A stretch of 64,000 nt of DNA from positions 64,001-128,000 of the forward strand of contig CBDBKM010000003.1 in assembly GCA_965206695.1 (NCBI GenBank). The letters run 5' to 3'. The notes beneath the pieces are model-generated. The model searched no databases and had not been told where the DNA came from. It saw only the letters and a program-made list of their open reading frames with translations. The stretch's first letter is position 1. Each line of letters starts with the position of its first letter. Source of the stretch: Chlamydiales bacterium. Lineage in GTDB: Bacteria > Chlamydiota > Chlamydiia > Chlamydiales > JAAZZY01. Positions 17,608 through 58,527 of the stretch are shown here, one piece after another. A program made the position numbers and the translations under genes.

Positions 17608-18546
17608 ATGGCATACTCTTTGAAATTTTTTATTAATATGGTACACCACAAAAATCAGCTTAAAAAAGCTGCCGGAAAAGAGTACCCCTACCCTAAAGAT
17701 CGCTTTTCAGGTAGAGGGGTAGTTATGGTAGCCGGAAAAGAAGAATATCTCACCAATGCATGGGTATCTGTCAACATGCTCCGGCAGTTCAATCAGTCGT
17801 TACCTATTCAGCTTTGGTACATAGGAGAAGAAGAGATTAATCAGGAAATAATCAATCTTTTAAAACCCTTGAATGTTCGATGTATCGATGCCCGTACAAC
17901 ACTTAAAAAACATCCTCTTAATCATTTAGGGGGCTGGGAATGTCATCCTTATGCGATTATGAATAGCTCATTTGAAGAAGTACTGTTTATCGATGCAGAT
18001 AATGTTTGTATAAAAGATCCCGAATATCTTTTTTCTACAAAAGAATATGAACAAACAGGTGCTATTTTTTGGCCCGATTATTTAAAACGACGCTTAACCC
18101 CTCGTCATCTTATCTGGAAAATATGCGATGTTAAATATAAAAATGAACCTGCTTTTGAAAGCGGTCAAATAGTCATCAATAAACGTAAATGTTGGAAAGC
18201 TTTAAATCTGACTATGCATATGAATGAATATTCCCATTTTTTCTATCAACATATGAAAACAGGACTTTGGGGTGATAAAGACACCTACCATATGTCATGG
18301 AATATGCTCAAACAACCTTATTCTATGATTCCTCATCCTATTAAAAGATTAACGATCGCACCCCACTATAGTCTTGTTCTCTGCCAACATGATTTTGAGG
18401 GTGACGTTCTATTTCAACATCGCAATTTGGACAAGTGGCAATTTAAAAAAAATAACTTAAAAATTCCCGGATTCCAATATGAGGAAGAATGCTTGGCATT
18501 TATTCATGAACTACGTAATAAATGGAAAGGGATGATATACTCCTGA
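17608..18546 (+). CDS. alpha-mannosyltransferase-like protein (GT71 / Mnn2-like)
   Basis: SSFEEVLFIDADN, GAIFWPDY, ESGQIVINK, GDKDTY motifs. Confidence 0.8.
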   Translation: MAYSLKFFINMVHHKNQLKKAAGKEYPYPKDRFSGRGVVMVAGKEEYLTNAWVSVNMLRQFNQSLPIQLWYIGEEEINQEIINLLKPLNVRCIDARTTLKKHPLNHLGGWECHPYAIMNSSFEEVLFIDADNVCIKDPEYLFSTKEYEQTGAIFWPDYLKRRLTPRHLIWKICDVKYKNEPAFESGQIVINKRKCWKALNLTMHMNEYSHFFYQHMKTGLWGDKDTYHMSWNMLKQPYSMIPHPIKRLTIAPHYSLVLCQHDFEGDVLFQHRNLDKWQFKKNNLKIPGFQYEEECLAFIHELRNKWKGMIYS

Positions 18547-18764
18547 CAGCTCTCACTCAACCCTTAAGGGAAGGGATTCCTCATTCAACGACCCTTGCTA
18601 ACAAGCATTAGTCGAATATGATCTCCAAAGGCTTAACTTACCGACTGCCCCACGGTAGATCTAAAAGATAGGAATAGTATACAAAATATGAGAATTAACA
18701 AGACACTGTAATCGAGACACTCTCATCCCAATGCTCACGCAAAGGGTTTCCCCGCTTAATTGTC
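18543..18764 (-). mobile_element. non-autonomous IS200/IS605 mini-element copy A (left end + omegaRNA scaffold + right end)
   Basis: Ends homologous to the IS605 element at 46925 and 52285-52396; inserted 3' of TTTAT (minus strand); no target duplication. Confidence 0.9.
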
Positions 18765-18782
18765 ATAAAATAAGGAAGAATT

Positions 18783-19019
18783 ATGGCTAAAAGAAAAATC
18801 CCGAAAATGTATAGCGAAAAAAATTATATCGCAGCTGTTTTATTATGCTTCTTCTTTGGAACATATGGAATCCACCGTTTCTATGTAGGAAAAATAGGAA
18901 CCGGCATTCTGATGTTGATTACCCTCGGCGGGTTAGGTATTTGGTGGATCATTGATTTAATTATTATTATCTGTGGTAATTTCGAAGATAAACTGTATTA
19001 CCAGAAGAATCCTTTATAA
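18783..19019 (+). CDS. TM2 domain membrane protein
   Basis: LLCFFFGTYGIHRFYVGK..TG motif. Confidence 0.85.
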   Translation: MAKRKIPKMYSEKNYIAAVLLCFFFGTYGIHRFYVGKIGTGILMLITLGGLGIWWIIDLIIIICGNFEDKLYYQKNPL

Positions 19020-19413
19020 AAATTAGACTTTCAAGATAAGGTGTTAACGGATCATTGGAATTTACTTTAGCAACAAATTCTTTCACAGAATCCACTAATA
19101 TTAATCGAGCAGTTGCTTTGTCTATTACTCTATAGATTTCAAATGATAAACCTAATATTTTACTTCCACACCATCCTCCGCTAAAACCAATACACTCCAT
19201 GTCATATTTATTGCATAAAATCGTTGCAATTTCTTTTTTTATACCATTCCTAATAATTGTCAAATCGGATGGTGAGGATTGCTCTATCTTTTTAAATGCT
19301 TTATTTAAGAAAGTTGTTTTTGAATCTTGACTGATGCCCTGTTTACAGGCACTTAAACCTACCAAAAGAGCAATATTGATTAAAAAAAATGGCAATACTA
19401 ACTTAGTTTTCAT
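18967..19413 (-). CDS. putative lipoprotein, candidate immunity protein (3' end possibly truncated)
   Basis: Lipobox LSAC after a hydrophobic signal; start overlaps stop of upstream hydrolase fragment. Confidence 0.6.
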   Translation of the reverse strand: MKTKLVLPFFLINIALLVGLSACKQGISQDSKTTFLNKAFKKIEQSSPSDLTIIRNGIKKEIATILCNKYDMECIGFSGGWCGSKILGLSFEIYRVIDKATARLILVDSVKEFVAKVNSNDPLTPYLESLIFIKDSSGNTVYLRNYHR

Positions 19414-56322: not shown

Positions 56323-56373
56323 AGAAGTAAAATGAGAGATATTATTTCTTTTCAGTCAAAAGGGGTGTTTTAA

Positions 56374-57057
56374 ATGAGTCGCAGGGATACAATTTTAATT
56401 GCAGTACTAGTCAATGCAGGGTTATTGATTATTTTATTCGCTACAGCAATCAATACCAATGATAAAAAAAATGTCATTAAAGTTGAGAAAGTAGCGCCAA
56501 AAACGGAAGTGAAGAGAACGATAACTGCCGCTAGTCAAGAACAGGCAAAGCCTTATTATAGGCCACAACTAAGTGCGCCTATCAAAGAAACACCAACTTT
56601 TACATACAAACCACCGGCTAAAGTGGAAGCGCCTGTACCTAGACCTATCGCTGTAAAACATGAAGCCAAGCCGGTTGTTAGATATGAAACACCGGTTGAA
56701 TCCAAGAAGCTTAATTTCGTGGAAGTGACAGTAAAAAGTGGGGATACTCTCGATCGTTTAGCCCGAATAAACGGAACATCTGTCAAAAGAATCATGACTG
56801 TGAATAATTTATCGATTACACGTCTGCAAGTTGGTCAGGTTCTTCGTATCCCGTTTGAAGCTGATGGAGATTCTGAGAATCGCAATGAGGAACGTAGTAA
56901 GTTATTTAAAAAATATTATACTGTAAAAAGCGGGGATACCTTATGGGATATTGCTGTTTCTAATAATATGAGTCTTGATAAATTATATGAACTCAATCAT
57001 CTTAATCATGATAGTGCACGTAAGTTACAGCCCGGGGATTCTTTAAGAATCCAATAA
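56374..57057 (+). CDS. nlpD: LysM-domain protein (chlamydial NlpD)
   Basis: MSRRDTILIAVLVNAGLL anchor, two LysM repeats, located between murD and ftsW. Confidence 0.85.
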   Translation: MSRRDTILIAVLVNAGLLIILFATAINTNDKKNVIKVEKVAPKTEVKRTITAASQEQAKPYYRPQLSAPIKETPTFTYKPPAKVEAPVPRPIAVKHEAKPVVRYETPVESKKLNFVEVTVKSGDTLDRLARINGTSVKRIMTVNNLSITRLQVGQVLRIPFEADGDSENRNEERSKLFKKYYTVKSGDTLWDIAVSNNMSLDKLYELNHLNHDSARKLQPGDSLRIQ

Positions 57058-57100
57058 AGTGATTTTATACTATTTAAAGAGCATTTGAACATCCTATTCC

Positions 57101-58423
57101 ATGCAACGATTAGTTTTTTTTAAACGAAGGTCTTTTAACTATTCTTCGATTCAACTGCATTGTGCCGCATTGATTATTAGTATCGCTTTAATTTTCGTTT
57201 TAGGTCTTACCATGGTATTTAATACCTCTTCTGCAGAGGTATTGGATTATGATATCAGTGGAGATACGCACCAAGCTCTTTTGAAACAAGGGCTTTATGC
57301 TTTTTTAGGTCTTTTAATTAGCTTGATTCTTTGGTTTATAGGATATCAAGAGATATTGAAACTAAGCTTTCCTATTTTAATTGCTTTAACTTTTTGTCTT
57401 ATATTGGTTTTTCTACCGGGGATTGGTTCAGAGGTTAATGGGGCGCATCGATGGATTTTCTTGGGCAAATATTCTATCCAGCCTTCAGAATTTGTCAAAT
57501 TTTCACTTCCGTTATTCTATATTTATTCCGTTATTCTAGGAGGAGTAAAGCCCAAATCTTTTTTTAAAATTTTAGGGTGTATCATTGTTCCTTTATTTCT
57601 TATTCTTATCGAACCGGCTAATGGTACGACAGCGATTATTATAATGACCTTGATCATGTTATTTATTTTAACAAAAGTGGATTTCAAATTATGGCTTTTC
57701 CCTATTATCATCATCCTTATGTTAGGAGGAATTGCCGCGTATAATATGCCTCATGTTTCTGCAAGGTTAACATCTTTTGCCAATCCCGAAATGGATATTA
57801 GAGGGAAAGGGCATCAGCCCTTTCAAGCTAAAATCGCAGCGGGCTCCGGAGGTCTTACGGGAAAAGGTCTGGGGCAAAGTATGCAAAAGCTTCATTACCT
57901 TCCTGAAGCTCAAAATGATTATATCGCAGCTATTTTTGCAGAAGAATTTGGATTCATCGGTATTTTTTTTTTAATTGTCCTGTATATGATTATGATCTAT
58001 GCAGGATTTTATATAGCAATTCATGCTAGGACTACTCAAGGATATTATATGGCAAGTACTATAGTTTTTTTAATTGGGATTCAGGCTTTTTTAAATTTGG
58101 CTGTTGTTTCCGGCCTTTTACCCAGTACAGGTTTAAACCTTCCCTTTTTTTCACAAGGAGGATCTTCTCTTATAGCAAACTTTATGGGATTGACACTATT
58201 GATTAACATTGCTCAAGATACAAAAGACTTTGACAGCTCCCAACTCTCAAGGGAAGGGATTCCTCATTCAACAACCACTGTCCGGGGAACAAAGCCGGGT
58301 TTTCGCAATACAAATTCCCAAAGGGGAACTTTCACGGTCTTTAATCAACCCATGCTCCCCGGGTCTGACATGATCTCCAAAGGCTTAACTTACCGACTGC
58401 CCCACGGTAGATCTAAAAGATAG
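57101..58423 (+). CDS. ftsW: SEDS peptidoglycan polymerase FtsW, C-terminus replaced by mini-element sequence
   Basis: GAHRWI, QPSEF, LPEAQNDYI, LPFFSQGGSS. Confidence 0.93.
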   Translation: MQRLVFFKRRSFNYSSIQLHCAALIISIALIFVLGLTMVFNTSSAEVLDYDISGDTHQALLKQGLYAFLGLLISLILWFIGYQEILKLSFPILIALTFCLILVFLPGIGSEVNGAHRWIFLGKYSIQPSEFVKFSLPLFYIYSVILGGVKPKSFFKILGCIIVPLFLILIEPANGTTAIIIMTLIMLFILTKVDFKLWLFPIIIILMLGGIAAYNMPHVSARLTSFANPEMDIRGKGHQPFQAKIAAGSGGLTGKGLGQSMQKLHYLPEAQNDYIAAIFAEEFGFIGIFFLIVLYMIMIYAGFYIAIHARTTQGYYMASTIVFLIGIQAFLNLAVVSGLLPSTGLNLPFFSQGGSSLIANFMGLTLLINIAQDTKDFDSSQLSREGIPHSTTTVRGTKPGFRNTNSQRGTFTVFNQPMLPGSDMISKGLTYRLPHGRSKR

Positions 58424-58527
58424 GGATAGTATACAAGATATGAGAATTAACAAGAATACGAAATAACGCTTTAATCGAGACGCTCTCATCCCAATGCTAA
58501 AGCAAAGGGTTGTTTCGCTTAACTGTC
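58230..58527 (-). mobile_element. non-autonomous IS200/IS605 mini-element copy C (with structured insert), inside the ftsW 3' end
   Basis: Removing it restores ftsW ..KDYKRKTVR* with an ATGA overlap onto murG; TTTAT target; TCAA right end. Confidence 0.95.

Follow-up and report, generated by a model that had tools for sequence, protein, structure and literature searches.

In this study, we describe three short elements devoid of protein genes, named A, B and C, in a 64,000-nucleotide stretch of DNA from a Chlamydiales bacterium (assembly GCA_965206695.1, contig CBDBKM010000003.1, positions 64,001 to 128,000 of the forward strand), hereafter called the window. We propose, with a probability of roughly 0.7, that they are non-autonomous mini-transposons of the IS200/IS605 family (PATE type) whose sole cargo is the gene for a TnpB guide RNA (omegaRNA), and that they would be moved by TnpA and retained by TnpB acting in trans. 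The genome belongs to the phylum Chlamydiota and comprises 2.46 Mb with 35% G+C in 13 contigs. The three elements follow the same plan, a left-end hairpin being followed by a non-coding linker and then by a right-end block. Their parts are listed below in window coordinates.

58230 to 58527, minus strand: mini-element C, long type, 298 bp, best preserved, between ftsW and murG
58528 to 58532, minus strand: target-adjacent motif (TAM) TTTAT of C, 5′ of the left end
58486 to 58527, minus strand: left end of C, with a subterminal imperfect hairpin (58486-58510), putative TnpA recognition site
58410 to 58485, minus strand: non-coding linker of C, with a small hairpin (58410-58421) at its end, just 5′ of the scaffold
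58230 to 58409, minus strand: omegaRNA-type scaffold of C, from homology to the tnpB-linked right end, covariation and mapping onto ISDra2
58391 to 58409, minus strand: stem 1 of C with the putative pseudoknot loop
58366 to 58390, minus strand: single strand and 5′ strand of stem 2 of C
58280 to 58365, minus strand: expanded stem 3 of C
58264 to 58279, minus strand: 3′ strand of stem 2 of C
58230 to 58263, minus strand: stem 4 of C, which is the right-end hairpin, and the end
58210 to 58229, minus strand: predicted guide of C, in the flank
44148 to 44439, minus strand: mini-element B, long type, 292 bp, decayed (from the alignment and the core-column count)
44148 to 44321, minus strand: scaffold of B
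44128 to 44147, minus strand: predicted guide of B
18543 to 18764, minus strand: mini-element A, short type, 222 bp, without the stem-3 expansion (from the alignment)
18543 to 18657, minus strand: scaffold of A
18523 to 18542, minus strand: predicted guide of A
18765 to 18769, minus strand: TAM of A

The three copies were found where the initial annotation had placed them, all on the minus strand. None of them contains a protein-coding gene; the only reading frames are those of neighbouring host genes entering from outside, and a tblastn search with TnpB against the mini-element loci was negative. Four repeat families of the window (D4, D5, D8 and D12) comprise A, B and C, with D4 and D12 joining B and C, and with three copies each of D5 (93 nt, 84-95% identity) and D8 (71 nt, 80-85%). 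The mean column identity of the three-way alignment is 78%. Moreover, the 21-nt start of the right-end block has four matches in the window with up to three mismatches, corresponding to A, B, C and a full element (52284-52304), where none is expected; this number was reached in 0 of 100 shuffles. Both end hairpins are subterminal, imperfect and on the same strand, with mismatched T pairs in the stem, and there are no inverted terminal repeats. Finally, an insertion of about 85 nt lies within the right-end block of B and C and is absent from A and from the full element.

This full element of the IS605 type, itself broken, lies between B and C and is composed as follows.

46925 to 52396, plus strand: full IS605-type element, broken, with its left end at 46925 and its right end stopping at 52396
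46973 to 47377, minus strand: tnpA of the full element (Pfam Y1_Tnp, E 4e-37)
47398 to 48312, plus strand: 5′ part of tnpB, broken near 48300
about 48320 to 52070: nested IS630-like and IS4-like insertions in tnpB
52072 to 52308, plus strand: 3′ part of tnpB, last 78 codons
52284 to 52396, plus strand: omegaRNA scaffold and right end of the full element

Homology between the mini-elements and the full element sets in at a 5-bp hairpin located 24 nt ahead of the tnpB stop codon and extends through the final base. It bears out the proposal of the initial annotation that the three elements derive from IS200/IS605 transposons, lack protein genes and retain the whole omegaRNA scaffold. The block opens with the 5′ edge of the first scaffold hairpin and, in the short type, measures 113-118 nt. 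As described for ISDra2 (PMC10097598), a scaffold of 116 nt suffices for the ISDra2 omegaRNA, which folds into stems 1 to 4 with a pseudoknot between the loop of stem 1 and the bases just 5′ of the guide; its stem 3b is disordered and can be deleted, and its stem 4 has a four-base loop. The chlamydial block shows a stem-1 hairpin, a conserved single strand, a long-range stem 2 enclosing a variable stem 3, and the right-end hairpin with a four-base loop followed by eight bases ending in TCAA. According to this mapping, which is a reading of our alignments and of the published description, the insertion of B and C would sit in the arm that is dispensable in ISDra2 (stem 3b). Because the junction falls at the 5′ edge of the scaffold, the mini-elements appear to have kept, of tnpB, nothing beyond its overlap with the functional RNA.

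Covariation argues for the folding of this block. The structure alignment (A3) comprises 13 long-type sequences, six from this genome and seven from other genomes, for which RNAalifold proposes 26 pairs, nine of them with changes on both sides. For 19 pairs assigned manually in stems 1 and 2 and in the base helix of stem 3, 90.7% of the 237 cells were paired, versus 39-67% with the partner slid by 1-3 columns; nine pairs and 31 cells are changed on both sides. The covariation score reaches 0.421, versus at most 0.202 for the slid controls and 0.262 ± 0.021 for shuffled alignments; 0 of 500 shuffles attained the score or the percentage paired, a control that overstates significance for related sequences, the slid one being fairer. 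The frequent G-U pairs fit an RNA of the minus strand, which is the element strand. The inner helices of the stem-3 domain look compensated by eye; they were kept outside the covariation count, as MAFFT misaligns their 3′ strands between lineages. With the short-type copies of this genome alone, RNAalifold recovered little beyond stem 1. Separately, the best sub-threshold Rfam match is to HPnc0580, an uncharacterised small RNA of Helicobacter pylori that may be an IS605-family guide RNA itself; the match covers 58326-58422 on the minus strand (30.6 bits for a cut-off of 37, E 0.0027), from the small 5′ hairpin through stem 1 to the conserved single strand.

A first alternative is that the mini-elements are inert debris, that is, deletion relics once mobile through TnpA, in which the scaffold is kept as the neighbour of the approximately 40 nt needed by TnpA and no RNA is made or used. 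The comparison between genera argues against it. Comparing the copies of this genome with two loci of other genomes (L017 and L018) gives 54-80% identity over the scaffold regions, with 39% for the linker and 43-49% for the left end. L017 and L018 are 81-96% identical to each other over the scaffold and 81-83% over the left end, and their linkers again share 39%. Judging from these sequences, the scaffold has been conserved across genera to a far greater extent than the linker. Relics are also hard to reconcile with a junction exactly at the 5′ edge of the functional scaffold, with a gene-less design that recurs in eight other genomes with compensatory changes, and with single-stranded positions of the stem-3 domain that are invariant across families. 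Altogether, we consider debris unlikely as an account of the family, even though it accommodates several features of the resident copies.

Indeed, a number of observations weigh against our interpretation, and we gather them here. Among the copies of this genome, the linker is 86% and the left-end hairpin 89% identical, and the scaffold regions range from 68 to 87%. Since the scaffold is not above the linker, most resident copies seem, on sequence grounds, to drift, as debris would. The initial annotation had regarded a scaffold conserved no better than neutral DNA as fatal to its proposal: this is what we observed among the copies of the genome, whereas across genera the scaffold greatly exceeds the linker, which in our view outweighs the former result.

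Individual copies also carry lesions, another point in favour of debris. The right end of A reads TCAG instead of TCAA, its right-end hairpin has a 4-nt insertion, and it deviates at 5 of the 86 columns conserved in the short-type set. The right-end hairpin of B is 5 nt short, and a non-consensus GCTAT precedes its left end. Over 49 core columns, defined as invariant in seven foreign sequences and kept in at least five of six own copies, C deviates at one, B at four and the other own copies at three or four. A and B may thus be dead, as both carry lesions; C looks intact from its sequence and is the one copy of the window that is likely functional.

A consensus promoter scan called no site in A, B or C, and single-sequence folding energies are no better than those of shuffles (z = -0.30 for C and +0.05 for A), two results that likewise suit debris. 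Rfam returned no match at the gathering score in the window. The pseudoknot is deduced from position only: the complementary bases are present and paired in the minimum-free-energy fold of A, and covariation is impossible there, the end being fixed.

Finally, the mini-elements have the left-end hairpin of a second subfamily, different from the one found in intact full elements, and a single tnpA (73% identity) was seen for the subfamily matching the minis. For these two reasons, the present mobility of the mini-elements is doubtful. The second subfamily is represented by L068 (G000:C2:90450-91870), an element that has a mini-type left end and contains tnpB only; its open frame of 390 aa is 60% identical to the main TnpB, and the first cysteine pair of its zinc finger is altered.

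The mini-elements belong to a large family of this genome. The copy-number search suggested in the initial annotation showed the family of C to be dispersed genome-wide, with at least 47 matches at E ≤ 0.001 (40 of 174 candidates scored). BLAST detected about 106 left ends and about 92 right ends in total, 74 of the left ends being of the second (mini) subfamily and 32 of the main one. Pairs of left and right ends less than 310 bp apart number 11: seven of the long type, including B and C, one of the short type (A), one with an internal deletion of the scaffold, and two of a gene-less kind with the same ends and a long, nearly perfect middle hairpin (G000:C10:267234-267530 and G000:C11:87982-88190), one of which has lost the 5′ half of its scaffold. 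The existence of deletion derivatives with other break points is a further point for debris.

The genome has 21 loci with the 72-nt linker of C, 0 of which adjoin a tnpB 3′ end, adjoining meaning within 400 nt downstream of the 3′ end of a tnpB on the same strand. The stem-3 insertion is present at 14 loci of the genome (at least 40 nt aligned), and likewise at 0/14 next to tnpB. The assignment as stand-alone omegaRNA loci rests on this absence of tnpB at the 21 linker loci and on the 14 intact tnpB genes elsewhere in the genome. Copies of the family are 82-87% identical to C, versus 98-100% among the TnpB copies, and therefore the mini-elements are much older than the main full elements; the mini family is old in this genome. 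The many copies with different flanks testify to past movement only.

Candidate partners for such elements are encoded in the same genome. A tblastn search gave 14 full-length tnpB matches at 98-100% identity and 17 full-length tnpA matches at 96% identity or more. Intact full elements measure 1667-1669 bp, and 9 of the 11 elements of that length have an open tnpB frame of 383 codons. The 367-aa TnpB of this genome contains the Pfam domains OrfB_IS605, Cas12f1-like TNB and HTH and matches ISDra2 TnpB from PDB over residues 4-359 (E about 1e-64). Going by these sequences, an apparently intact TnpB is available in trans in 14 copies. The tnpA of the window element (46973-47377, minus strand) has no ATG, GTG or TTG upstream of the conserved N-terminus; its frame is 134-146 codons from stop to stop and 74 aa from the first ATG, so that a rare start codon or a very low level of translation is likely. 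As for the insertions that break tnpB, the region 48320-52070 contains an IS630-like element split in two and, on the minus strand at 49849-51573, a 574-codon frame for an IS4-like transposase.

We also looked for relatives in a sample of 400 genomes of the phylum. The full right end is matched in 16 of these genomes, and the TNB domain of TnpB is found in 158. A relative's mini-element is matched in 25 (E ≤ 1e-5); two candidates per genome were scored in this search, so that the number of genomes with the stem-3 insertion is a lower bound. The stem-3 insertion is matched in G054, G330, G371 (f7), G129 (f20), G210 (f32), G250 (f5), G379 and G083 (f9), where G denotes genomes and f families. 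Including the genome studied here, mini-elements bearing the stem-3 domain thus occur in at least nine genomes and at least six families, and none was found in the eight other genomes of its own family. Where sequence upstream of the scaffold was available, the relatives have a left-end hairpin and an AT-rich non-coding linker, and they occupy differing genomic sites with differing flanks. Genome G220 has short-type gene-less elements of the same design (L045 and L065).

When the relative loci were searched by tblastn with the TnpB of this genome, 6 of 19 matched, all with short-type right ends, and 0 of the 12 gene-less loci, three of which are cut by contig ends and one of which (L021) shows no more than a decayed remnant by eye. 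Of the seven loci outside the gene-less set, six matched, these carrying short-type right ends. The stem-3 domain was found next to tnpB at 0 of the 14 loci of this genome and 0 of 10 loci elsewhere. An exact-pattern search of contigs for the domain returned four stretches and is too strict to judge whether a tnpB-linked form exists.

This restriction to gene-less elements raises the question of whether the expanded stem-3 domain gives the long type a role independent of TnpB, for instance by binding another protein or by acting as a small RNA in its own right. G054, G330 and G210, which keep a well-preserved long-type element (L017, L018 and L041, respectively), could be taken in the same sense: no TnpB was detected in them with a protein query, nor any match to PF07282 or to PF01797 (the Y1 TnpA domain). 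These assemblies are 97, 96 and 90% complete and consist of 20, 180 and 30 contigs, and repeats often remain unassembled in such drafts, which can explain the missing TnpB and TnpA. Moreover, 6 of the 9 other genomes bearing mini-elements have TnpB (versus 158 of the 400 sampled, a comparison too small to establish linkage), apart from the stem-3 domain the RNA is a standard TnpB scaffold, and Rfam has nothing for that domain. A role independent of TnpB thus seems very improbable to us.

A related proposal, which we hold to be quite unlikely, is that the long type forms an old, self-standing lineage of guide-RNA-only elements that spreads among chlamydial families with its own conserved domain of about 85 nt, absent from tnpB-linked elements, and persists even without a detectable TnpB or TnpA. 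If this were true, the RNA would borrow nucleases across co-resident genomes or would have a partner or a role beyond TnpB.

For the TnpB-dependent mini-transposons that we favour, the target motif and the flanks are informative. The 5-mer before the left end is TTTAT for A, C and the full element, in agreement with the initial annotation, and GCTAT for B, the single case of this 5-mer. The genome-wide examination of the motif, which had been suggested there, found TTTAT to be the majority, before 71 of 102 left ends, and NTTAT before 99 of 102. The guide strings given earlier are the true flanks of A, B and C. Each 16-nt guide has a single perfect match in the genome, which is its own flank; allowing up to three mismatches raises the totals to 30, 94 and 60, and the motif is missing in front of the one-mismatch hits. 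The guide of B (44128-44143) has a 13/16 match, with the first nine positions contiguous, at about 49575 and at about 45 other genomic sites, inside a multi-copy IS630-like element; a motif variant precedes it, and by a rough count it is likely due to chance.

The initial annotation saw in these flanks a dispersed guide repertoire. In a related reading, the host would have recruited the elements so that their guides steer TnpB, or a dead TnpB-like repressor, to targets elsewhere in the genome or in foreign DNA. The copies are many, their flanks differ, and three of them adjoin cell-envelope genes, all of which would suit such recruitment. Because each guide perfectly matches only its own flank, the repertoire is not supported, and the pattern is that of ordinary homing. 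The copies are furthermore not syntenic between genomes, and they drift within their own genome. We therefore regard a host-recruited repertoire as extremely improbable.

Returning to homing mini-transposons, we infer transcription, TnpB loading and homing, beyond the anatomy, copy family, target motif, resident TnpA and TnpB and covarying structure that we observed, and the following sequence of events can be envisaged. The linker that stands in place of tnpA and tnpB would probably supply the transcription start. By eye, most linkers contain, about 18-20 nt before stem 1, a -10-like hexamer with TG in front of it, and then a small hairpin whose stem changes are compensated between lineages. 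The linker of C has a weak promoter-like hexamer pair below the threshold of the scan. Among five relatives scanned for consensus promoters, two (L018 and L033) have a called TG-extended sense site in the linker, L065 has a call on the antisense strand only, and L017 and L045 have none. Transcription would exit the element, so that the first 16-20 flanking bases form the guide. TnpA of full elements would move the mini-element by single-strand peel-and-paste to sites 3′ of TTTAT, and the empty donor site left by excision would consist of TTTAT followed by the flank matching the guide. TnpB from the 14 intact elements, loaded with the mini-element RNA, would cut this empty site, which would then regain the mini-element by recombination with the sister copy.

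Removing C or A in silico at the boundaries given above yields clean gene ends, with insertion 3′ of the motif and no target duplication. In-silico removal of 58230-58527 restores a 383-aa frame of the FtsW/RodA family whose stop overlaps the murG start at 58547. With C in place, the FtsW frame is 440 aa long (window 57101-58550), its last seven residues being swapped for 64 residues encoded on the opposite strand of C; murG is pushed about 300 bp away from ftsW, and the overlapping junction is split. A lies between the stop of a glycosyltransferase gene and the start of the next gene. It supplies a replacement stop codon, and its removal leaves the adjoining 312-aa glycosyltransferase frame at the same length. 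B is located about 120 nt upstream of a DUF481 gene, on the same strand. A repeat near 30.5 kb was considered as a paralogous empty site for B and rejected, since it ends 30 bp short of the element. Elsewhere in the window, a 45-nt unit is exactly repeated three times at 39296-39430, with a diverged copy 7.8 kb away at 31442-31486; these repeats are inside two paralogous stretches of about 1 kb (28534-29608 and 37723-38788) that are 76-87% alike.

The stand-alone omegaRNA mini-transposon is an already published concept, here found with an extra RNA domain common to chlamydial families. The relevant parts of a preprint by Meers et al. (10.1101/2023.03.14.532601) indicate that PATEs often encode omegaRNAs that need TnpB of other elements in trans, and a PATE with IStron ends is mentioned in a passage of another (10.1101/2023.11.20.567912). 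Stand-alone mobilised omegaRNAs without an effector were found and shown to work in trans, according to a passage in PMC10691335 that cites Altae-Tran et al. (2021, Science). As far as these passages describe them, the stand-alone omegaRNAs of OMEGA systems are, like the elements reported here, mobile guide-RNA loci without effector or transposase, with effector-bearing copies in the same genome. Ours differ in being chlamydial and related to TnpB of the ISDra2 type, in having for most copies the stem-3 expansion of about 85 nt, and in that their function in trans is predicted.

The PATE-like elements of Geobacillus stearothermophilus, in the preprint's account of them (10.1101/2023.03.14.532601), similarly have ends that resemble those of resident IS605-family elements and no protein gene; the chlamydial ones belong to another phylum, use the motif TTTAT, form a lineage present in at least six families and are older than the resident full elements. 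The ISDra2 TnpB/omegaRNA pair, as presented in the sections of PMC10097598 devoted to it, has a homologous protein, the same class of scaffold length, the same stem order, a four-base last loop and a variable stem 3. It differs by a tnpB gene that is overlapped by the RNA and by the motif TTGAT, whereas the mini-elements have a linker and the motif TTTAT. Word searches of the open-access literature returned no paper on such chlamydial elements or on a stem-3 expansion confined to gene-less copies, which is not proof of absence.

If our interpretation holds, A, B and C would provide a natural example in which the guide-RNA half of a TnpB system persists as a mobile element of its own, and in which the cut between the gene that was lost and the RNA that was kept falls at the exact edge of the functional scaffold. 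The stem-3 expansion, seen in gene-less copies only, would point to a place where a compact guide RNA tolerates, and may profit from, an insertion, and offers a handle on whether such RNAs depend on a resident nuclease. Finally, for the annotation of environmental chlamydiae, these elements would account for a large share of orphan transposon ends.

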